Assembly (NCBI GenBank): GCA_050124795.1
Contig: JASFEO010000003.1
Location: 5,605 to 69,604, forward strand
Reading direction: 5' to 3'
Source: Candidatus Pacearchaeota archaeon
Lineage (GTDB): Archaea > Nanobdellota > Nanobdellia > Pacearchaeales > GW2011-AR1
Length of the DNA: 64,000 nt
Shown here: positions 2,534-51,300 of the stretch, one piece after another
How positions within the stretch are numbered: position 1 is the first letter of the stretch
Layout of the letters: every line of letters starts with the position of its first letter
Position numbers and translations under genes: made by a program
The notes under the pieces: generated by a model
The model's database searches: none
What the model was told of the DNA's origin: nothing
Seen by the model: the letters and a program-made list of their open reading frames with translations, nothing else

Positions 2534-3229
2534 ATGAAAAAAGGGGCAAGAATAAATTTATTATTCCTAATGATTATTTTGTTAATCTTTTTAATAAACG
2601 CAGAGATTAATATTTCTAGTCAGGATTCAATTAATATTAAAAATAATCTTGAAGATTTGGGATTTAATGTTGCAAAAATCTATCCAAATGAATTAGCAGT
2701 TAATTTGCTATATGATGGAAGAATTTTGATATTATATTTTTGGGAAGATTCTTTTGAGGAGGTTATTTTTAATAAAGATGGATTTGATTATGGGTTTTAC
2801 TTCAATGAAAAGATGAATATAAAATCATTTTCTGATCCCTCTATGAACAAAGGTGAATTAATTAAAAGGCTGGATTTAGTTACAAAATTTCTTGATTTTA
2901 TAGATAAAAATGCTTTGGAGGAATATAAATCTTCATTAGACTATATAAAATTTAAGATAGATAATATTGATAGTAAAGTCCTTTACTCAAATCTTTCCAG
3001 AGAATATAAACAAGGAGAATCTAAAGATAGTTATATCGGTTATGACGGAAAAAAGACCTATTTTGAGAAAAAACAGATCTCATTAGTGATAGATATTAAA
3101 AAAGAGACAATCTTAGAACAAGACCAAAATTATAATATGGATACTCCTCAGGAGGAAATTGACAAATACAAAGAAAGAAAAGCCAAATACTTGGTTGGCT
3201 ATCTTAAATATAACGTGGTATTTTTTTAA
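2534..3229 (+). CDS. Hypothetical secreted/membrane-anchored protein (N-terminal hydrophobic signal MKKGARINLLFLMIILLIFLINA)
   Basis: ORF track; signal-peptide-like N-terminus; no known domain recognised. Confidence 0.5.
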   Translation: MKKGARINLLFLMIILLIFLINAEINISSQDSINIKNNLEDLGFNVAKIYPNELAVNLLYDGRILILYFWEDSFEEVIFNKDGFDYGFYFNEKMNIKSFSDPSMNKGELIKRLDLVTKFLDFIDKNALEEYKSSLDYIKFKIDNIDSKVLYSNLSREYKQGESKDSYIGYDGKKTYFEKKQISLVIDIKKETILEQDQNYNMDTPQEEIDKYKERKAKYLVGYLKYNVVFF

Positions 3230-29416: not shown

Positions 29417-30127
29417 TCACAAGTATTTTAGAAAATTTTTAATTGGCTGAAAATAACCCGCCCCCCAGAAACGCAAACCCATAATTCCCACTAATTTTTT
29501 GTCTGACATTGAAATCACCGGGGTTCCTGAGTCTCCAGGGATTACCCCTATATCAGTTCCAATTGAATTTTCATATCCTTCTCCGCCAGGAATTTTAATT
29601 CCATCTAAGTCACTAATTTTTCCCATTCGATAATTAAAACCGAGCAATTGAGGATTTCCTATGTCTGCAATTCTCTCTCCAAGATATATGTCCTTCCTTG
29701 GTTCTAATGGAAATCTCGGAACATCTAAATTTTTTGGTAATTTAAAAATTGCTACATCATTTTCATCAAAAATTAATTTTTCAAGTTTAACTCCGTTAAT
29801 CTTTGTCTCAAATTTAAGTTTTTCCGGGACTCTATTAATTAATCCAAAAGGGGTGTTTACCGGAACTCCCTTGCTAAAATCAACAATGTGGCCAAGTGTG
29901 AAATAAAAATCCTTATATACAATCCCCATCCCGTATTGTGTAAGATTCCTATCATAATTATCCATAAAATAATCTACTTTTGTTTCCGACTTAATGACAT
30001 ATTTTTTTAAACTTAATAATAATTTGCCTTCATCTAAATCAATTTCGTTTAATAAATTACTTAAATAATTTTTACAACCAATTAATCCTGCAGCCAAGCC
30101 TGTGACTAGAAAATGCCTTCTGTCCAT
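29417..30127 (-). CDS. Trypsin-like (S1/chymotrypsin fold) serine protease with twin-arginine/lipobox-like N-terminus
   Basis: MDRRHFLVTGLAAGLIGC (RRxFL Tat motif + Cys); GDSGTPV (GDSGGP-type catalytic Ser motif); TLGHIV (His region). Confidence 0.65.
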   Translation of the reverse strand: MDRRHFLVTGLAAGLIGCKNYLSNLLNEIDLDEGKLLLSLKKYVIKSETKVDYFMDNYDRNLTQYGMGIVYKDFYFTLGHIVDFSKGVPVNTPFGLINRVPEKLKFETKINGVKLEKLIFDENDVAIFKLPKNLDVPRFPLEPRKDIYLGERIADIGNPQLLGFNYRMGKISDLDGIKIPGGEGYENSIGTDIGVIPGDSGTPVISMSDKKLVGIMGLRFWGAGYFQPIKNFLKYL

Positions 30128-30226
30128 GGTTAATTAAGGGATTAAAAATTTATATGCCCTTGCTGAGTACAATAATAAGCAAAAAATAAATTATATACTT
30201 TTTGGAAAAATAAATAAATTATATAG

Positions 30227-31102
30227 TTAGTTTTTCTGGAAGAATTTTTCATTTAAGTTAATTGAAGAAATATCCCTGTAAATGTCTTTTATTAAACTTG
30301 CAAGTGGAATAAAAATTCTCTTCATTTCTTTATTATTTGTTTTGAAAAATTCTTCATTAAATTTTAAACTCTGTTTTTTATAAAGGCATGCATAAATATT
30401 GTCAATAATTTTTCTTAATTTTTCAAAATCTTTTTTTGAATAATTAATTTTCTGATTGCGAAATAAGATATCTCCAAATGCCTCGAACTTTTTTACCATG
30501 TCCAGATAAAAGAAAACATCCTCAATAGAATTTATATGCTCGTTGTTTCTCAAAAAAGGATCTTTTGCACAGGAAAATAAAATTCTTCTTGAAAGAAAAT
30601 AAAGGCTATCAATTTTGTCTTCTATTTTTTTTAATCCAAAAGAATCTTTTTCTTCAATTAAATCAACCATTAACTCCAGAAGGTAGATTATTCTTTTAAT
30701 CATTTTGCGGATGTTTACATTAAGCCCCTCAAATAAAAAAGTGATTTCAATTTTTTCTTTTGTTTCATTTGTTATTTCGTATCCTTCAAGATATTTTAAT
30801 ATTTTATTAATTTCAAAAATTTCTTTTTTCATTTTATCAAATTTAATTATGATTTTTTGAATATTTTTCATATAACAAAAAACAATGAATTCAGAAATAT
30901 TTTTTATGTCCTTAAGATAAATTGTTATTTTTTCTTTTTGTTTTATCCCTGATTCAGAAGTTTTAATTAATAATTCATTGTCTTTAAAATCTTCAATAAA
31001 TAAGATATTTCCTTCTTTTAAATTATTTTGAATTACCCATTTTTTAGGTAAAGAAATTGCATAGGTTCTTTTTCCAACAAGCTGTATTTTTCTTGATTCC
31101 AT
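30227..31102 (-). CDS. PhoU-domain regulator with N-terminal AbrB/SpoVT-type swapped-hairpin DNA-binding domain
   Basis: IQLVGKRTYAISLPKKWVIQNNLKEGN (SpoVT/AbrB-like); C-terminal helical repeats typical of archaeal PhoU homologs. Confidence 0.55.
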   Translation of the reverse strand: MESRKIQLVGKRTYAISLPKKWVIQNNLKEGNILFIEDFKDNELLIKTSESGIKQKEKITIYLKDIKNISEFIVFCYMKNIQKIIIKFDKMKKEIFEINKILKYLEGYEITNETKEKIEITFLFEGLNVNIRKMIKRIIYLLELMVDLIEEKDSFGLKKIEDKIDSLYFLSRRILFSCAKDPFLRNNEHINSIEDVFFYLDMVKKFEAFGDILFRNQKINYSKKDFEKLRKIIDNIYACLYKKQSLKFNEEFFKTNNKEMKRIFIPLASLIKDIYRDISSINLNEKFFQKN

Positions 31103-31161
31103 AATTATATATTTTGTAAGAAGGATTATATAATTTATATATTTTTCTAAAACTAAAAATA

Positions 31162-31398
31162 TTAATTTAAATTTTTAATTCTGCAGTTTAAAATCTGAAG
31201 AAGTTTTGAAATAAATCTTTTTCTCAAAATATTCTCAATTCTTTTTTCAGGTCCGATGGCAGATTGATTTTTTTCTGTCATAAAAATATTTTTCAGTTTA
31301 ACAGAATTATATCCCAAGCCATAATTTGTTGAAGCAGATAATTTCCTATAGTTGCAAAATCCGCGAAATGCAATCAAATCTGCCGTCATTAAAATCAC
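31162..31398 (-). CDS. Hypothetical protein (78 aa)
   Basis: ORF track only. Confidence 0.25.
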   Translation of the reverse strand: MILMTADLIAFRGFCNYRKLSASTNYGLGYNSVKLKNIFMTEKNQSAIGPEKRIENILRKRFISKLLQILNCRIKNLN

Positions 31399-31537
31399 TG
31401 TCTTTTAAATATTCATTATATTTTTAATGATTCTTTCATCATGGCGAGACAAAGTTTCACTTTCTAAAAGTTCTGTGTTTTCGCAGGCCGCTCTATAAAT
31501 TTCAATTCTATCAGAATCCTTTAATCCTTTTTTCATT

Positions 31538-31990
31538 TTATATTTTCATAAACAGCCAACTTTTCTCAGGCTTATTCCCATAATGAGTTTTTACTAAAAC
31601 ATATTTTCCTTTTAGTTTTTTACCAGTTAGTTTTATTTTGATTTCTTTTTTTGTCTTTTTAATTAGTTCATAAGTTCCTTTGTCCCATATTCCAACTTTG
31701 CCTGCGCCGTAATTTCCCTCGGGGATTGTTCCATGAAATTTTGCATATTCAACTGGATGGTCTTCAACTTTTATTGCTAATCTTTTTATTCCTTTAACTT
31801 TTGGGGGAATTTTTGGAATTGCCCATGATTTTAAAACTCCGTCGTATTCCAATCTTAAGTCATAATGCAAATGTGAGGCTGAATGTTTTTGAATTACATA
31901 GATTAATTTCTTTTTTGTTGATTTTATTTTTGGTTTTGGTTCGCCTGATTTTTTTAAGTTTCTTTTTTGTTTGTAGGTTGTTAGTGTCAT
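31538..31990 (-). CDS. Stand-alone LigD-type 3'-phosphoesterase (PE) domain protein
   Basis: KLIYVIQKHSASHLHYDLRLEYDGVLKSWAIPKIPP...KRLAIKVEDHPVEYAKFHGTIPEGNYGAGKVGIWDKGTYEL aligns motif-for-motif with bacterial LigD PE (FVIQKHDASRLHYDFRLE.DG.LKSWAVPKGP...KRLAV.VEDHPLDY..FEG.IP.G.YGAG.V.VWD.G). Confidence 0.8.
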   Translation of the reverse strand: MTLTTYKQKRNLKKSGEPKPKIKSTKKKLIYVIQKHSASHLHYDLRLEYDGVLKSWAIPKIPPKVKGIKRLAIKVEDHPVEYAKFHGTIPEGNYGAGKVGIWDKGTYELIKKTKKEIKIKLTGKKLKGKYVLVKTHYGNKPEKSWLFMKI

Positions 31991-32406
31991 TTTAATTCAT
32001 TAATTAATTTAATAAACTCTAGAATATCCGGGATTAATTCTTCCGACAGAGAATGAAAAACTTGCGCATCATCTAATTTGCCGTATTGATGAGAAATTAT
32101 ATTTCTCATGCCTTTTGCTTCTTGCAGCCTTTCAGAAAGTTCTTTTGAGATTATTCTTTCGTTTGCAAGAATTTCAAAAACCTGTTTTTCATATTCAGGC
32201 TGTTTTAATTTTTTCTCTTTAATTATAAAAAATGCAACATCAACAACTGCTTCAATTATTTTCTCAAAATATCTCTCGCCGATTGCTTTTATTTTATAAT
32301 CATTTCTGTAATCTTCAAAATCTGAAGGCAAAACCGGTTCTAATTCTTCAATAAATTTTTCTATCTCAATAATTTTATCTTTTATTCTATCTTCTTTGTT
32401 TTTCAT
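31987..32406 (-). CDS. hepT: HEPN-domain protein, HepT/DUF86-type toxin
   Basis: ...RNIISHQYGKLDDAQVF = R-x4-HxY HEPN catalytic motif in DUF86 context; 139 aa; 4-nt overlap with PE gene. Confidence 0.75.
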   Translation of the reverse strand: MKNKEDRIKDKIIEIEKFIEELEPVLPSDFEDYRNDYKIKAIGERYFEKIIEAVVDVAFFIIKEKKLKQPEYEKQVFEILANERIISKELSERLQEAKGMRNIISHQYGKLDDAQVFHSLSEELIPDILEFIKLINELK

Positions 32407-32902
32407 TATTAAATAAGACTTTATGATTTTTTAAAATTGACTTTTTTACTTTTTCGGGGAGAAAATTAAAAACCTGTATGTCGAGTTTGTCAGGGAGTTT
32501 TGCCATCACGCTTCTTCTGAAATTAAAAGCACCTTTTTTTGTAATTTTATTAAACATAACTGCGATATCAATATCTGATTTTATAGTAATTTCATTTTTC
32601 ACAACAGAACCAAATAAGAATATTTTTTTTATTTTTGGTTTTAATGGATGATCCAAGATAACTTCAAGAGCAAGATTGATTAATTTTTTGTTTTCAATTC
32701 CTTTTTTCAGGTTAAAATCATCTTCAAATTTTGAAAGCTCTTTAATGAATTCTAATTTTTTTCTTATGTCCCTTGACAGCCTGTTTTTTTCAGACTGAGT
32801 AAGATTAATTCCATTAACCTGTTTTTCAATTATTTTTAATTCCCCTGCCCCGAATATTTTTCTACTCTCCGGGGTTTTTTTAAGAAATTCAATCATTTTC
32901 AT
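32387..32902 (-). CDS. mntA: MntA-like minimal nucleotidyltransferase (antitoxin partner of HepT) with ~70 aa N-terminal extension
   Basis: IKKIFLFGSVVKNEITIKSDIDIAVMF (GS...SDIDI Pol-beta NTase motif); 20-nt overlap with hepT. Confidence 0.72.
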   Translation of the reverse strand: MKMIEFLKKTPESRKIFGAGELKIIEKQVNGINLTQSEKNRLSRDIRKKLEFIKELSKFEDDFNLKKGIENKKLINLALEVILDHPLKPKIKKIFLFGSVVKNEITIKSDIDIAVMFNKITKKGAFNFRRSVMAKLPDKLDIQVFNFLPEKVKKSILKNHKVLFNNEKQRR

Positions 32903-32921
32903 TGTGGGATAATTAATAAAA

Positions 32922-32934
32922 TAATCTATATAAA
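32922..32934 (-). promoter_or_regulatory. TATA-like box (TCTATATAAAGG, read on the plus strand) ~28 nt upstream of mntA start at 32902
   Basis: Motif and spacing; lies in a 220-nt region that must also hold the promoter for the oppositely oriented large gene. Confidence 0.3.
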
Positions 32935-33158
32935 GGTTATTGTAACCATAATTATGGTTATAGGTTGATAGTTTGCATTAAGCTTGAAATATATTTTCTA
33001 AAACAGTAATAATTATAAAGGCTTGAATATTTAGTAAGCCATGGCTAACAAAGGGGTGCCGGGAGTTCTTGAAGAACTGGTGCATCATGCTGTTTCTTTG
33101 ATTAAGCCAAATTCAATTTATTTTGCTTATAAAAGGAGGGTTTATCCTGCGATTTAAA

Positions 33159-36149
33159 ATGGTAAGGGAGAAAAGAGACCTTATTTATTTAAACCCAAAC
33201 GAATTAAAATTATTTAAATTCTTAAGATTAAATTCTGCTGAAATCTCGAATTGGCCTTCCTTGAAAGATATAACAAAAAAATTTAAGATTCCTGAAAAAA
33301 AAGCAAAAAGTTTAATATCCTCGTTAAGAAGAACAGATGGAATTACATTATCTTCTGAAACAAAAAAATTAGGAGATGAAATAATAACAAGATATGGTTT
33401 AACACCTGAAACTATCGGGGTCTTAGTTAAATCAGGGGAATCAAATAGTCAAAAGGAATTTAATTATTGCTCATTATATCTTGGAAAACCTTCTTTTGGA
33501 ACTAAAGCATTTGATGAAAGATATACAATGAAAGGGCTTGCTTTAGCATTAGAGGTTAATGGATTAGCAAAAGAGATTCAGGAAGTAATTATTCAGGGGG
33601 GGATAATCCCGACTGTACCTCCTTTTTCTTCTGTAAGTTATTTAACTGCTTTAAAATTTTTAAGCCAAATAGATAGAACCTCCGACAGAAAAAGTATCTC
33701 CGAAGAAATGCTTGAAGAAGAAATAACTACTGAATTTGAAAGAGACTTTTACAATAAATTTGTTAACAATGATAAAAAGAAAAAAATCACCTCCCTTACA
33801 GAAGCTTTTAGTGCTGCAGAAGAACAAATTTCTACGTTAATGAATGCACTCCCCGAAGAGACTGTTTTAAGAATGCAATTAGGTCATGAAGAAAGAGAGA
33901 ATATCCGTTTTTTAGAACAGGCGCAAATTCAAGGATTTGCTAAGAAAAAAACAAAGAGAATTAAAGCAATGAAAGAGGATTTAATTCAGGATAGTGAAAT
34001 TGCCTACGCAAAGTCATATGGGCTGGCAGCTAAACAATTTATTTTAGAAAAAATTTCTTCTTCAGAAGCATTAAAGAGTAAAATTGGGGAGAAAAAAAGA
34101 GATTATATTAAAAGAATTGAGAAAAAATTCTTAGACGCTAAAAAGATAGGGGGAAAATTAGATTTAATATGGGGGGGCTATCCTCTTGCAAGAACAAGCG
34201 AAGTATCTTTAGAAACAATCTGGGAAAAAGCAAAGGAAGAAGCTTTTAGGTATAGCTATCACTGGAGTAAGAGGGATCAAAAAAGGATAGGGATGCAGGC
34301 AAAAGAATTAGAAGACGAACTGGAAAAAATTCCTAAACAAAAAAGGGATTTAGAATCAAGAGTCGAAGATATAGAGGAGACTGAAAGCTGGACAAAACAA
34401 CTTCTTGGGGGGGATAGGGCAGCCATAACCTGGTTCACCAGACAATATCCTGTTGATGCAGATTACGCAGAATTCGGATGGAAAAAAGTAAAAGATAAGT
34501 TTACTAAACATTTTTTTAACTGGCACATTTCAAATCCAACAGTTATTCATGTATCCCCCAGAAAAAAAGTTACTCTCGATACAGGGATTGTAACGAATGT
34601 AAAAACAAAAGAAAAAGATACAGCAGAAGTAGAATACCGAATTCATTCAGATGGAAAAAAGAAAGTAATGATGATTGAAAATATAAATCATATTTCTTCA
34701 AATGATATTCCTGCAAAAGCCATTAATGCTGCAAAACAACTTATGAATTATGAAACTACTGTTTTAAAGAAACTTTATGAAAAAGAGATCAAGATGGTTC
34801 AACCAGATATTGTTCTTTTGGGGGCTCATTTAAGTGGGGGTTTTAGAGCAATGCCTTGGTTTAAAGAATCAGAGCAATTAATTGAAGGAGAGTTTGTTGG
34901 TGCACAGGATATTAGTTGGTTAATTAACCTTCCAACACTCCAATCTATCCCCCATCTGGAATGGCTCACAGCCCATCAATTTAGAAATTGGGATGTTAAA
35001 AGATATTTAAAAGGCCCCTATGCTTCTGCAGCAATTGCCCATATAGAAGATAACGAAGGAGTTAATAAATTTTCCATAATGGATAATGGGTTTTTAGTTG
35101 AGGCAGGCAAATTAGCCGAGCAAATTGAAACATACAGAGATGAATTAAGAGATAAATCCCTTGATAAAGAAACGCGCTCAAAAATTTTTGGATTAATAAA
35201 AGAAGCTAAACAAAAAGTTAAAGCAAATTTCAAAAAAATAGAGGCTGCCGGGGATTTTCACTTAGGTTCTCCGGATCAATGGGAAAGATATAGTAAAGAT
35301 CAATTAATTAAAGCCGCCCAATCATATCAAAAAAGAAAAGGTCTTCCAAATATTGTTTGTTATGATGAAATATTAAATGGTGTTGAAGAAAGAATTTTTA
35401 AATCTTCTACAAGATACCTTGGCGGGATTCCCCAAAAGTTTGAAAGGCAAGTTATTACGCCAATCTTAGAATCTGAAAATCTTTCTAATGAAGAAAAAGC
35501 AAGATTGATCGCAAAAGAGAGCATGGCTAATCTTAGGTCGATACCTATTCATAATATGTCTGATCAAAAAGATGCATTTAGATGGCTGTGCAAACCTTAT
35601 TTGGATAGAATTCTTGAAAATAATGGACTTTTAGTTCTTACAAGTGGGAATCATGCAAATCAATCACAGAGATTAGCTGACGAAGCTCAGGAACTTGCAA
35701 ATCAGTTTGACAAGGAATTAATATATGACCGATTCAATAAGCAAGGAAAGATTCATGTTCATTCAGGAAAAGGCAATCCTGTTGGAGTCGGGACAATAAG
35801 ATTAGGTGGAAATGCTCAGCAAAAGTTATTCACAATTCATAAAATGCCAGAAAGAATGGATGAAGGTTATGGGGGGGCATTGCATTTAAGAAAAGGGAAA
35901 AATGATGCAGATATAATTGTATACGGAGATAGACATCATCCTATAGCGTGGTATGCGGATGGACATCTTGGAACTCTTCATCCAGGAATGGAGCCTATTA
36001 ATACATATGTTCCCTTGATAGGAAAGCCTGCAGGAATTCATGGAATTAATAATATTTTTTATGACCCTGATAAAAGAGGGATATACCAAGTAGATTTTAT
36101 TTTAGATGATGCCCTTGAAAAGATTATTGAAGCTGAGAATATAATTTAA
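33159..36149 (+). CDS. Large multidomain protein (~996 aa from ATG 33159; ORF open from 33123) with N-terminal wHTH-like region and C-terminal calcineurin/Mre11-like metallophosphoesterase motif set
   Basis: C-terminal third: AAGDFHLGSPDQ (motif I GDxHxG as in Mre11/SbcD), VLTSGNHANQ (motif III GNH[DE]), IIVYGDRHHPIAWYADGHLG (GH / GHxH-like). N-term NELKLFKFLRLNSAEISNWPSLKDITKKF resembles an HTH. Start ambiguous (SD GGAGGG at 33134-33139; ATG 33159). Confidence 0.55.
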   Translation: MVREKRDLIYLNPNELKLFKFLRLNSAEISNWPSLKDITKKFKIPEKKAKSLISSLRRTDGITLSSETKKLGDEIITRYGLTPETIGVLVKSGESNSQKEFNYCSLYLGKPSFGTKAFDERYTMKGLALALEVNGLAKEIQEVIIQGGIIPTVPPFSSVSYLTALKFLSQIDRTSDRKSISEEMLEEEITTEFERDFYNKFVNNDKKKKITSLTEAFSAAEEQISTLMNALPEETVLRMQLGHEERENIRFLEQAQIQGFAKKKTKRIKAMKEDLIQDSEIAYAKSYGLAAKQFILEKISSSEALKSKIGEKKRDYIKRIEKKFLDAKKIGGKLDLIWGGYPLARTSEVSLETIWEKAKEEAFRYSYHWSKRDQKRIGMQAKELEDELEKIPKQKRDLESRVEDIEETESWTKQLLGGDRAAITWFTRQYPVDADYAEFGWKKVKDKFTKHFFNWHISNPTVIHVSPRKKVTLDTGIVTNVKTKEKDTAEVEYRIHSDGKKKVMMIENINHISSNDIPAKAINAAKQLMNYETTVLKKLYEKEIKMVQPDIVLLGAHLSGGFRAMPWFKESEQLIEGEFVGAQDISWLINLPTLQSIPHLEWLTAHQFRNWDVKRYLKGPYASAAIAHIEDNEGVNKFSIMDNGFLVEAGKLAEQIETYRDELRDKSLDKETRSKIFGLIKEAKQKVKANFKKIEAAGDFHLGSPDQWERYSKDQLIKAAQSYQKRKGLPNIVCYDEILNGVEERIFKSSTRYLGGIPQKFERQVITPILESENLSNEEKARLIAKESMANLRSIPIHNMSDQKDAFRWLCKPYLDRILENNGLLVLTSGNHANQSQRLADEAQELANQFDKELIYDRFNKQGKIHVHSGKGNPVGVGTIRLGGNAQQKLFTIHKMPERMDEGYGGALHLRKGKNDADIIVYGDRHHPIAWYADGHLGTLHPGMEPINTYVPLIGKPAGIHGINNIFYDPDKRGIYQVDFILDDALEKIIEAENII

Positions 36150-48055: not shown

Positions 48056-48262
48056 ATGACAAAAAATAGAAATTTAAAACTTGAAAAAATCGCAAAATGC
48101 GCAGGAGCTTTGTTAGTCAATGGGATTATGTATTCACTTTATTCTCTTACAACTATTTTTAATTCTTCTTTTAGAGATACTCAGGATTTAGAAAGAGGAA
48201 TGGATGAAAGTTATCAGGCAATATCCGAAAAGTTTGAGAATATTCGTGGAAGATCTTATTGA
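48056..48262 (+). CDS. Hypothetical protein (68 aa, one TM)
   Basis: TTAAAATGAC junction; ORF track. Confidence 0.35.
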   Translation: MTKNRNLKLEKIAKCAGALLVNGIMYSLYSLTTIFNSSFRDTQDLERGMDESYQAISEKFENIRGRSY

Positions 48263-49329
48263 GGCGAAGTTCCGCTAACTAAGTCATCAACAATTTTTAT
48301 CATTGTTTCTAAGAAGTCTTTTGTTCTTGCCTGCCATTCGTCGATTTCAACACCTTTTAAGTCGCTTATTTCTCCATGAACAATTTTTTTATGCAATGCT
48401 AATAAATCCCTGTACCAGACAACATATTTCATTTTTAGTCGTCCTGTGTCAACAAAAGTTTCTTTTAATTCTTTTGGAATGAATTCCGGCGACGGCGGCA
48501 AGACATTTGCTGAGATTAATGCAGCATGCGCAGAATCAACCATCGCCCAATAAAGTCCTTCAATGCTTCCAAGTTCTGCTGCTTTGCTTCTTGCATAATG
48601 TATTGGCGCTCTTTGAAGGCAGTCATGAATTGCTTCCGGTGTTGCCCTGATTTTTCCTTTTATTAATAAATATTTAAGTGGCTCAAAAAATCCTGCAAAG
48701 TCAATCATTGCTTCGCCATATCTTAAAACATTAATTACCGTTGGGTCCCCCTTCATTAGGTCCCCCCACCACGTTGACAATTTAACTGTGTTAATATGCA
48801 GGTCTTTTGAATATGGATTTGCTCTTAGAATCTTGTCCAGTTCTGTTCTGTACCATGCAATGAGTTCTTCATCCCAGTTTATTGCAATATCGTCGATAAC
48901 AATTATTATGTCAATATCTGAACCTGCTTGATTCATCTGCTTTGCAACTGAACCAAATAAAACAATTGACTTAATTAACTTGTTGAATTTTTGATAAACT
49001 TTTGTTGCAAAGTCCATTGCAATTTCCTGTTCACTTTTAAACTGCAAGCTTGGAGAATTTTTTTCTATTGGTTTTTTTTGAGAAGTTTTTTTATGAATAG
49101 TTTTTTTCACTGGCTTTTTTTCACTGGCCCTTTTTTCTGCCATGGCTTTTTTAGCTTTTTTGTAAACTTGCCAGCCTTTTTTAAAACCCATTTTTGCATA
49201 TTTTTTAGGCAAGCCTTTTTTTGCTGAATGTTTTTTATGAACAATTTTTTTGTCAGGGTTTTTTTTAGCAACTTCCTTTTTATGAAAAGTTTTTTTCTTA
49301 GAATTTTTTCTAGTCTTTTTTTTCACCAT
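48256..49329 (-). CDS. Pol-beta-superfamily nucleotidyltransferase domain protein (paralog 2) with ~100 aa Lys-rich repetitive N-terminal region
   Basis: IVLFGSVAKQMNQAGSDIDIIIVIDD (NTase motif); LHINTVKLSTWWGDLMKGDPTVINVLRYG aligns with LHIQTYLLTDFWESVKDANPVIFTFIRDG of paralog 1; N-term repeats KKTFHKKE / KKIVHKKH / KKTIHKKT. Confidence 0.6.
   Translation of the reverse strand: MVKKKTRKNSKKKTFHKKEVAKKNPDKKIVHKKHSAKKGLPKKYAKMGFKKGWQVYKKAKKAMAEKRASEKKPVKKTIHKKTSQKKPIEKNSPSLQFKSEQEIAMDFATKVYQKFNKLIKSIVLFGSVAKQMNQAGSDIDIIIVIDDIAINWDEELIAWYRTELDKILRANPYSKDLHINTVKLSTWWGDLMKGDPTVINVLRYGEAMIDFAGFFEPLKYLLIKGKIRATPEAIHDCLQRAPIHYARSKAAELGSIEGLYWAMVDSAHAALISANVLPPSPEFIPKELKETFVDTGRLKMKYVVWYRDLLALHKKIVHGEISDLKGVEIDEWQARTKDFLETMIKIVDDLVSGTSPQ
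49000..49329 (-). repeat. Low-complexity Lys-codon-rich coding repeat (poly-T runs on plus strand) encoding KK-x-HKK repeats
   Basis: Seen in sequence; part of NTase paralog 2 N-terminus. Confidence 0.5.
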
Positions 49330-49392: not shown

Positions 49393-51300
49393 TTATTCCA
49401 TCCCCCGCCCGCTCATTCGAGAACCTCCGCCGCCCTGCATTTGACCTCCAAGTTCAGTTGGCAAACTTGCCATTGAAAATCCCCCGCCATACATTTGAAA
49501 ATGTGTGTTTGGCAAAATCTGTCCGTACCCTGAAAAATATCCTTGCTGAAGACCTGCTGTCTGATTCCAATAAGGCCCCATTTGCATTGAATAAATTCCT
49601 GAGCCAAAAGCTTCAAGTGATGCCTGAACAGGGGCAGTCTGAAAATGCTGCCACCAATTACCAGCCTCAATAACTTTCTTTGCTTCAAACCCTTCCTTGC
49701 CAAGTTTCTCCATAATTTCTTTAATAGGAACATTCCCCATCCCCATTGGCAGTTCAGTGTGTTCAAGACCGAAATTATCAGACAAGTGAACATGCTTGAC
49801 AAAGGGTTTTATTGCTTCGCTCTCTTGTATAACATTTTCTTTTGTTGCGCCAAATTTTCTGATCATGTTTATATGCCCCACGTCCCATGTTGCGCCAATT
49901 AATTTCTCAGCCTCTTTTCTTGCTTCTCTTTCAGAAATTCCTTCTGCCTTTGCTTTTTCAATAAACTTTGCATGGGATTTTTCAATTAACATTTTTAATT
50001 CCTTGCCTGTACTCAATGCCCCGCCTGCAGGAGGATTCTCAATTGCAATAATTGGCGCAGCTTTCCATTCTCCTTTTCTTACTTTTTCATATCCTGCAAA
50101 AGCAGTGTTGGCGAAAGTCTCAGCAGATTTATCACTTGCAAACTTCTCCATTGACTCATACATTTTTGGTGCAAGACGACGGTTTTTTAAATTATGAAGC
50201 AAATTCTGCATTGCATTTGACTGCCCGACAATTGACTGCCCGCTATTTTTTAATTCCTCGCCGTATTGTTTTGATATTATTTTTAATGCTTCTCTTTGAT
50301 TTTCATCTCCATATTCATAAGCCTTGCTAAATAATGCCTGAAGCTGCTGGTCTGTATCATGAAGATATGTTTCTGCATTTTTGTAATGGTCATATGCTGC
50401 CTTTTGCTCTGGGAATTGACTTAGCAGTTGAGGATTAAGTTTCCCTTCTTGGCGAGCTTTTTCAAGATGCGCAATCTTAGGAGCATTCCTCTGTAAAATT
50501 TCATCTGCTCTTTCTTTATTAAATAAAATCTGGTTAAGAGAATTATCCCATTCTGAATGATTCAACATATTAATTCTGTCTTCAGGGGCCAGAAATTTTC
50601 CATCGCCTTCCAAGGGGATTTCTTTAAAAACTTTTTCAGGGGAGATTTCACCTGCTTTATATCTTTTAATGTCTGCTTCTGTAACGCCCTCTTTTATTTC
50701 CCCTTCTGTCATTCCTCCATAAATTCCTCCTGGATAAAACTTTTTTTCAGGTTTTAATTGTCCGGGTTTACCAGTCTCGCGATTTACAATAATTAATTCC
50801 TTTGTTTTTCCTTTTCCTTCTTTTCCCCATTCATATTGAGAACCAGGGATTCCCGCAGAAGAATGAAAAACAACAGGTGAACTTCCGTCAGGGTTTACGT
50901 CGTGGGCTCTATCCATGACATTTTGCATTTGCCTCTCAACTGCTTCTCTTTGCAATTCACTAAAGCCCTGATTTGTCATCCCTGAAGCTTCAAATTGAGG
51001 TGAGCCGTGAACAGTCACAGTAGCTCCGACTAATTTTGCCTGTCTTGCAACCTCCTTGAAATGCTCTTTTGGGATTGATTCAAAAACACTGGGCTCAACA
51101 GGAGAAATCTCAATATGCTTAACCCCGCTTGATAATTTGTCAGTAACTTCTTTTAAGATATTCGCAGATCGAAAATCAGTTGTCAAACCAAACTGGCCAG
51201 CAGTTACAGGATAATTAGAAGGCGATAAACTGTTTTTATTTGGGTCCAGGCTTGAATAACCCCCCTGATAAATATTTTTAATTTCGTAAGCCATTTTCAC
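49393..51300 (-). CDS. Xylose-isomerase-like TIM-barrel (endonuclease IV / sugar-phosphate isomerase fold) protein with ~300 aa internal insertion and Gly/Gln/Met/Tyr-rich C-terminal tail (635 aa)
   Basis: TVTVHGSPQFE, VVFHSSAGIPG, ...insertion..., IAIENPPAGG, WDVGHINM, VHLSDNFGLEHTELPMGMGNVP (metal-ligand H/E/D/H/D/E pattern of the fold); tail GPYWNQTAGLQQGYFSGYGQ...GGGFSMAS...GGQMQGGGGSRMSGRG. Confidence 0.5.
   Translation of the reverse strand: MKMAYEIKNIYQGGYSSLDPNKNSLSPSNYPVTAGQFGLTTDFRSANILKEVTDKLSSGVKHIEISPVEPSVFESIPKEHFKEVARQAKLVGATVTVHGSPQFEASGMTNQGFSELQREAVERQMQNVMDRAHDVNPDGSSPVVFHSSAGIPGSQYEWGKEGKGKTKELIIVNRETGKPGQLKPEKKFYPGGIYGGMTEGEIKEGVTEADIKRYKAGEISPEKVFKEIPLEGDGKFLAPEDRINMLNHSEWDNSLNQILFNKERADEILQRNAPKIAHLEKARQEGKLNPQLLSQFPEQKAAYDHYKNAETYLHDTDQQLQALFSKAYEYGDENQREALKIISKQYGEELKNSGQSIVGQSNAMQNLLHNLKNRRLAPKMYESMEKFASDKSAETFANTAFAGYEKVRKGEWKAAPIIAIENPPAGGALSTGKELKMLIEKSHAKFIEKAKAEGISEREARKEAEKLIGATWDVGHINMIRKFGATKENVIQESEAIKPFVKHVHLSDNFGLEHTELPMGMGNVPIKEIMEKLGKEGFEAKKVIEAGNWWQHFQTAPVQASLEAFGSGIYSMQMGPYWNQTAGLQQGYFSGYGQILPNTHFQMYGGGFSMASLPTELGGQMQGGGGSRMSGRGME

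Follow-up and report, generated by a model that had tools for sequence, protein, structure and literature searches.

Three overlapping genes on the minus strand of a 64-kb stretch of DNA (here called the window) from a Pacearchaeota metagenome-assembled genome (MAG) encode a minimal nucleotidyltransferase, MntA, a HEPN RNase, HepT, and a stand-alone LigD-type 3′-phosphoesterase (PE). The explanation that we consider best, with a probability of roughly 0.55, is that mntA and hepT form a canonical, autoregulated type VII toxin-antitoxin (TA) cassette located in the variable, TA-rich spacer of a housekeeping locus, and that PE, probably cotranscribed with the cassette, is the usual cleaner of DNA 3′ ends. 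The evidence speaks for genes that have long been kept as neighbors in an insertion hot spot rather than for a new combined machinery.

The window consists of archaeal housekeeping DNA (including exosome, enolase, and S2 genes) with a GC content of ∼31%. The mntA and hepT genes overlap by 20 nt and hepT and PE by 4 nt; at the latter junction, the shared sequence ATGA holds both the hepT stop codon TGA and the PE start codon. The three gene identities and the operon-like layout had been proposed in an earlier reading of the DNA letters alone (the sequence-only reading), and both were borne out, the identities by profile searches with Pfam, NCBIfam, and TIGR02777 models and the layout by these overlaps. 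That reading had also supposed the module to be undescribed; in keeping with this, our literature search turned up no published account of a MntA-HepT-PE trio. Feature positions are collected in Table 1.

TABLE 1 Positions of the probable operon and adjacent features in the window
Feature	Position	Strand	Remarks
mntA, minimal nucleotidyltransferase antitoxin, 171 aa	32387..32902	−	Pfam Polbeta and NTP_transf_2; GSX10DXD
hepT, HEPN RNase toxin, 139 aa	31987..32406	−	RX4HXY = R101, H106, Y108
PE, stand-alone LigD-type 3′-phosphoesterase of the Methanosarcina class, 150 aa	31538..31990	−	N-peptide present, C-peptide absent
Probable promoter and operator region of the cassette, a tandem pair of inverted repeats ATAACC-N8-GGTTAT	32921..32961	−	Pattern search
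386-bp segment with 43-aa and 78-aa open reading frames, directly after PE	31152..31537		Absent from the closest relative, L162

Gene products and putative operator of the predicted mntA-hepT-PE operon

MntA matched the Pfam families Polbeta (9e−15; 55.1 bits with a cutoff of 26.9) and NTP_transf_2 (1e−8) and scored 50.5 bits against the NCBIfam MntA_antitoxin equivalog, under its cutoff of 60. Its GSX10DXD motif is FGSVVKNEITIKSDID (GS-VVKNEITIKS-DID), and it carries an N-terminal extension of ∼85 aa that is specific to the clade. A single-sequence AlphaFold2 (AF2) model of MntA had a pLDDT of 46.7 and was unusable for this N-terminal domain. HepT matched Pfam HepT-like (PF01934; 1.4e−26) and NCBIfam HepT_toxin (NF047751; 98.9 bits with a cutoff of 60). 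Its RX4HXY motif reads RNIISHQY, and the residues R101, H106, and Y108 were invariant or nearly so in the HepT alignment (A1). RX4HXY and GSX10DXD are the signature motifs of type VII systems as defined by Yao et al. (PMC7641770). PADLOC returned generic nucleotidyltransferase (NTase) candidate-system matches for MntA only and none for HepT or PE. The antitoxin-first order was general: mntA lay 5′ of hepT in all related loci with sufficient contig (80 loci). The DPANN clade of HepT comprised at least 272 homologs sharing 53 to 74% identity. One metagenomic contig carried the MntA(-HepT) cassette twice within 3 kb (L134, positions 2 to 812 and 2636 to 3025), which indicates that duplication within genomes has occurred in this clade.

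The pair resembles the type VII system HepT/MntA of Shewanella oneidensis (SO_3166/SO_3165), in which the antitoxin gene likewise precedes and overlaps the toxin gene and the motifs RX4HXY and GSX10DXD are found in HepT and MntA, respectively. It differs from that system in the extra N-terminal domain of MntA and its score under the equivalog cutoff, in the presence of a third gene, PE, that overlaps the toxin stop codon, and in its host, a DPANN archaeon. A minimal nucleotidyltransferase (MNT)-HEPN protein of DPANN archaea, cls.004259/NEQ050, was also described as unusually conserved and amid housekeeping genes by Makarova, Wolf and Koonin in 2019; however, it is a fused protein, whereas in the window MNT and HEPN are encoded separately and the toxin motifs are intact, and a link to PE was not described there. 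In a system published in 2013, a phosphoesterase likewise accompanies a DUF86/HepT-type module as an extra member of the operon, but that phosphoesterase has a HAD fold rather than the LigD PE beta-barrel, and the mechanism was untested there.

A pattern search placed two adjacent inverted repeats upstream of mntA (32921 to 32940 and 32942 to 32961), each with 1 mismatch to ATAACC-N8-GGTTAT. The TATA box, TTTATATA (32927 to 32934), forms the spacer of the second repeat and lies 25 to 32 nt 5′ of the mntA ATG. The tandem motif was also found 5′ of MntA in ∼35 related loci, regardless of the downstream gene. Since it precedes MntA throughout the clade, whatever follows HepT, the cassette brings its own promoter. 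The tandem repeat is probably an autoregulatory operator, and the position of the TATA box inside it suggests that the cassette is probably autorepressed. In the mechanism we propose, MntA would use its GSX10DXD motif to oligo-AMPylate Tyr108 in the RX4HXY motif of HepT, silencing the RNase, and autorepression of the cassette promoter would act through the N-terminal domain of MntA.

The trios leave no intergenic space for a promoter before PE. Given the overlap of the hepT stop and PE start codons, PE is most likely transcribed as the third gene; it would thereby be cotranscribed behind the cassette and is perhaps also translationally coupled to hepT. TA-less PE genes had a TATA-like box at about −24 to −35. 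In the trio, the codons for the conserved C-terminal EFIK of HepT form the sequence TTTATTAAA, which spans −28 to −40 relative to the PE ATG, and an internal PE promoter may be present within the 3′ end of hepT.

The 150-aa protein matched LigD PE models, as the sequence-only reading had predicted: it scored 184.3 bits with TIGR02777 LigD_PE_dom (cutoff, 144) and 136 bits with Pfam LigD_N (PF13298; 6e−40; cutoff, 31), and its best PDB match was, over the full length, the Methanosarcina barkeri PE (3p43; E = 1.4e−52). Sequence comparison and the 3p43 alignment identified Q34, H36, H42, D44, R46, H78, and Y82 as the counterparts of catalytic residues. The six from H36 to Y82 lie in QKHSASHLHYDLRLE ... 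EDHPVEY, and the metal- and phosphate-binding residues are kept; the equivalents of these six in the active site of PaePE are His42, His48, Asp50, Arg52, His84, and Tyr88 (PMC3082917, PMC8656161). In a protein database search, 7,977 of the 8,000 candidates scored were homologs at E ≤ 1e−10. The 120 best homologs listed were almost all 148 to 170 aa in length with a LigD_N domain only, and those with a named host came from Pacearchaeota or Nanoarchaeota.

The sequence-only reading had regarded a PE without Ku as notable in itself. This was not borne out: a stand-alone PE of ∼150 aa without Ku is the archaeal norm (PMC3082917), Smith et al. found archaeal PEs to be free-standing, active, and present in genomes without Ku, and the listed homologs were almost all LigD_N-only proteins. 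Ku, ligase, LigD, and POL sequences used as phmmer and tblastn queries against the 64-kb window matched the PE open reading frame (ORF) alone, and Pfam scans of the large ORFs of the window found no Ku, LigD ligase, or POL. Within the window, PE is not part of a Ku/LigD nonhomologous end joining (NHEJ) system. In bacterial loci, the neighbors of PE were Ku and ligase, as expected. The M. barkeri enzyme (MbaPE, PDB 3P43) is similar to the window PE in size (∼150 aa), in having an N-peptide without a C-peptide, in its catalytic His/Asp/Arg/Tyr set, and in the absence of a Ku partner. While Smith et al. reported archaeal PE genes to be unclustered with genes of note, PE comes third in a TA operon here and, in relatives, adjoins the rRNA operon. 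We propose that PE would be an ordinary Mn-dependent DNA 3′-end-cleaning enzyme that works independently of the TA pair, in base-excision or strand-break repair rather than Ku-dependent NHEJ. In two uncultured archaea, an endonuclease III (HhH-GPD) gene was located directly 5′ of a stand-alone PE (L051, 4537 to 5619; L066, 5358 to 6444), an arrangement that suggests a role in base-excision repair, with PE cleaning DNA 3′ ends.

The PE locus and recurrence of the trio

Two collections of related loci were assembled, each from the best 80 loci of its scan: metagenomic loci centered on HepT, retrieved with an alignment of the DPANN HepT clade, and species-level loci centered on PE homologs. ORFs in these loci were called simply as the longest reading frames, and trees were built from the short proteins by neighbor joining (NJ).

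PE resides in a conserved housekeeping locus from which the TA pair is absent in most relatives. Among the species-level DPANN loci, 24 had the 16S rRNA gene of a divergent rRNA operon upstream of PE, and DPANN relatives carried a convergent rpS2-enolase(-rpoK-exosome) cluster 3′ of PE; this layout, with PE between the rRNA operon and rpS2-enolase, seems to be undescribed so far. In 11 species, PE lay only 255 to 360 bp from the 16S 5′ end, with no TA genes in between, and other species had 0.5- to 3.7-kb spacers with assorted cargo. Such close 16S-PE spacing was noted in many Woese- and Pacearchaeota relatives (L002-L004, L009, L014, L031, L041, L043, L050, L068, L074, and L104/106). VapBC, ParE-like, MazF, PBECR2 plus DUF2283, and DUF2683 genes flanked PE in related loci. 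A homologous MntA-HepT pair was present 5′ of PE in only two of the 80 species-level PE loci (L020 and L038), and MntA-HepT was carried by 2 of 25 species-level loci. No NTase gene was found near PE in Bathyarchaeia and bacterial PE loci. MAG contigs often break at the 16S-PE spacer. Another cargo of this spacer was a LAGLIDADG endonuclease gene located between the 16S rRNA gene and PE and overlapping the PE start (L054, 1514 to 2575).

Viewed from the toxin, PE lay 3′ of HepT in 21 of the 80 HepT-centered loci and was absent from 42; in a further 14, the contig end was too close to judge. Dereplication at 95%, on a set that included the window, L020, and L038, left 18 lineages with PE downstream, 1 with PE upstream, and 36 without PE. 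The trio is thus conserved in many DPANN loci, and the fortuitous single adjacency that the sequence-only reading had named as a way for its proposal to fail does not hold. About two-thirds of the HepT clade is positioned tightly 5′ of unrelated housekeeping genes, often with the same 4-nt overlap. From their translations, read without a profile search, the genes found 3′ of HepT elsewhere included Bud32, ribulose-phosphate epimerase (Rpe), PIG-L, GatE, asparagine-synthase-like, PHP phosphoesterase, archease, EF-1alpha, and PEP synthase genes. Because HepT abuts these unrelated genes equally closely, the tight junction is not specific to PE.

PE-linked HepT loci with long enough flanks were found at the S2/enolase locus, where TA pairs without PE also occurred (L117, L119, L127, and L128). 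All four combinations of PE and TA presence and absence occurred at this same locus, which argues against an obligate three-gene module. PE-linked HepTs and TA-linked PEs were scattered across the NJ trees, which were used only qualitatively because they are weakly resolved. Distance matrices from 15 distinct trios were correlated (MntA-HepT, r = 0.64; MntA-PE, r = 0.61; HepT-PE, r = 0.45; Mantel P ≤ 0.0015), with mean divergences of 0.34 to 0.39. The correlated distances and similar divergences indicate that the three genes were long inherited together. Because the three proteins co-diverge, a scenario in which a mobile TA inserted recently and independently was rejected, and pure chance adjacency was rejected because the trio, and a pair from a second MNT-HEPN family described below, recur. 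In our reading, the TA-PE adjacency is old and co-inherited, and the spacer that holds it, with the rRNA operon on one side and the rpS2-enolase cluster on the other, is hypervariable and rich in TA genes.

Several observations weigh against an account in which TA and PE are simply neighbors. The trio persists in 18 lineages, about one-third of those with known context, and the recurrences exceed the expectation from a single chance adjacency. The HepT-PE junction of the trios is mostly −4 to +2 nt with a conserved start codon, and 3 of the 80 loci, near-identical and representing one lineage, have the order PE-MntA-HepT. The co-divergence, judged from the protein sequences, is unusually stable for a TA. 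The closest relative of the window, L162, carries at exactly the same junction a different, nonorthologous pair, encoding a winged helix-turn-helix (wHTH) NTase of 176 aa and a 139-aa protein; the nucleotide sequences of L162 and the window become homologous 3 nt ahead of the PE ATG. Such pairs of the second family (family 2) stood 5′ of PE in L070, L162, L170-172, and L173.

L162 shares 85% protein identity in PE and 77 to 84% DNA identity over PE and the downstream genes. Relative to the window, to which it was about 83% identical in nucleotides, three replacements or indels had taken place within 4 kb: the cassette swap, the 386-bp segment directly after PE, and a trypsin-like peptidase gene.

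The 139-aa partner in family 2 had 442 homologs and no Pfam match. Its alignment (A2) showed the invariant residues YSHEAF ... KFDRFRKIRNxxNYYG, from which the RX4H histidine is absent. Comparison with HepT by hhalign gave E values of 0.34 for the single sequence against A1 and 0.11 for profile against profile, and the family-2 profile had no match to PDB sequences or Pfam at E ≤ 1. An AF2 model (pLDDT, 96.9) had HEPN proteins of MNT-HEPN systems as its top Foldseek matches (2hsb, 7ae8, 7ae9, and 5yep), with probabilities of 0.93 to 1.0, TM scores of 0.5 to 0.6, and weak E values. On this structural evidence, the partner is predicted to be a HEPN-fold protein without the catalytic histidine. 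Among the eight family-2 contexts sampled, the pair was also found at the S2 locus without PE (one case), 5′ of an ATP-dependent DNA ligase gene with a 0-nt gap (L174-L176, 3501 to 5654), 5′ of a Ham1/ITPase gene with a 4-nt overlap in another lineage (L178-L179, 3501 to 4450), and 5′ of an unknown gene in one context. Viral-contig scans for the HepT family and family 2, and thus for both HEPN families, gave no match.

Alternative roles for the MNT-HEPN-PE arrangement

PE might act as an eraser of the type VII system, trimming the 3′-5′-linked oligo-AMP on the HEPN tyrosine and so tuning or re-activating the toxin. The chemistry is suggestive, since the adduct consists of three AMPs with 3′-5′ phosphodiester bonds and a free 3′ end (PMC7641770), a short 3′-ribonucleotide tract of the kind that is the signature PE substrate. 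Both MNT-HEPN families found before PE keep GSX10DXD and a tyrosine beside the R..N motif, and phosphodiesterases that remove AMP have only been speculated on in the field (PMC13000451). The known substrates of PE, however, are polynucleotide ends, and the enzyme halts at one ribonucleotide; with most PE genes having no MNT-HEPN neighbor and most of the TA clade no PE, we consider this role unlikely. The sequence-only reading had offered another link, in which PE heals the 3′-phosphate or 2′,3′-cyclic phosphate RNA ends left by HepT, making the operon a self-limiting RNA-cleaving stress or defense module. The tight, conserved operon layout and the co-divergence of the proteins would fit, as would the preference of CkoPE for single-stranded substrates with 3′-terminal ribonucleotides and its 3′-phosphatase activity (PMC3258152, PMC3082917). 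Yet the other cassette at the same junction lacks the RX4H histidine (RKIRNxxNYYG) and therefore has no obvious RNase products needing to be healed, PE and TA each occur singly at the locus, and without an RNA ligase, the RNA would stay unrestored. The literature search turned up no PE activity on 2′,3′-cyclic phosphate or all-RNA substrates, and no described HEPN-PE link was found. Given that most relatives have PE without TA and most of the TA clade lacks PE, this rationale appears quite improbable.

The DPANN MNT-HEPN pairs could instead be domesticated accessory or regulatory factors of nucleic acid maintenance genes (PE, DNA ligase, and Ham1) rather than selfish TAs. Here the family-2 pairs are telling, as they lie directly 5′ of PE, ATP-dependent DNA ligase, and Ham1/ITPase genes; viral contigs yielded no member of either HEPN family, and unusually conserved DPANN MNT-HEPN genes have been reported in housekeeping contexts (Makarova et al., 2019; PMC6393860). 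Nonetheless, the window HepT has a complete toxin motif, most genes located 3′ of HepT in its clade have no connection with nucleic acid ends, and the family-2 contexts sampled number only eight. Domestication thus seems very unlikely, and the same low standing applies to its specific form, a two-subunit nucleotidyltransferase acting with PE at DNA ends. Under the preferred reading, a TA cassette next to a resident DNA 3′-end-cleaning gene, biochemical interplay between TA and PE is presumably absent; a functional coupling of the two is possible.

The conserved MNT-HEPN-PE arrangement and the replacement of cassettes at one exact junction give a starting point for experiments on two questions: the pathway of stand-alone archaeal PEs, for which none has been known since 2011, and the means by which type VII toxins regain activity. 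Were PE an eraser, MNT-HEPN and PE would be a real functional unit in DPANN in which PE resets or re-arms type VII systems, and this would explain why two unrelated MNT-HEPN families are joined to the same PE start codon. If the link is positional only, the locus documents a TA-rich hypervariable spacer by the DPANN rRNA operon and a conserved operator of this TA clade, and it indicates that in these compact genomes, a tight overlap between genes is a poor guide to a common function.

Neighboring genes and segments

The 386-bp segment probably lies outside the module. Homology with L162 resumes at window position 31151, no family match was found for its two ORFs, and the segment was not repeated elsewhere. 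A segment with the trypsin-like peptidase gene (29417 to 30149) was also missing from L162, and the absence of these two segments points to rapid turnover around PE. Between them on the window, a minus-strand gene (30227 to 31102) that was kept 3′ of PE in L162 encodes a 291-aa protein with an N-terminal MazE/AbrB (SpoVT) domain and a weak PhoU-like region.

A plus-strand gene divergent from the TA operon (33123 to 36149) encodes a 1,008-aa protein without a significant Pfam or PADLOC match, and no homolog was seen in related loci. Calcineurin-like metallophosphoesterase motifs (GDFHLG, GNHAN, and GDRHH) could be recognized by eye in its C-terminal half. Farther along the window, a minus-strand gene (48256 to 49329) encodes a 357-aa protein with a minimal NTase domain, possibly of the fused MNT-HEPN type noted by Makarova et al. 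in DPANN. It adjoins a second minus-strand gene (49393 to 51300), whose 635-aa product contains an AP_endonuc_2 (endonuclease IV-like TIM barrel) domain.

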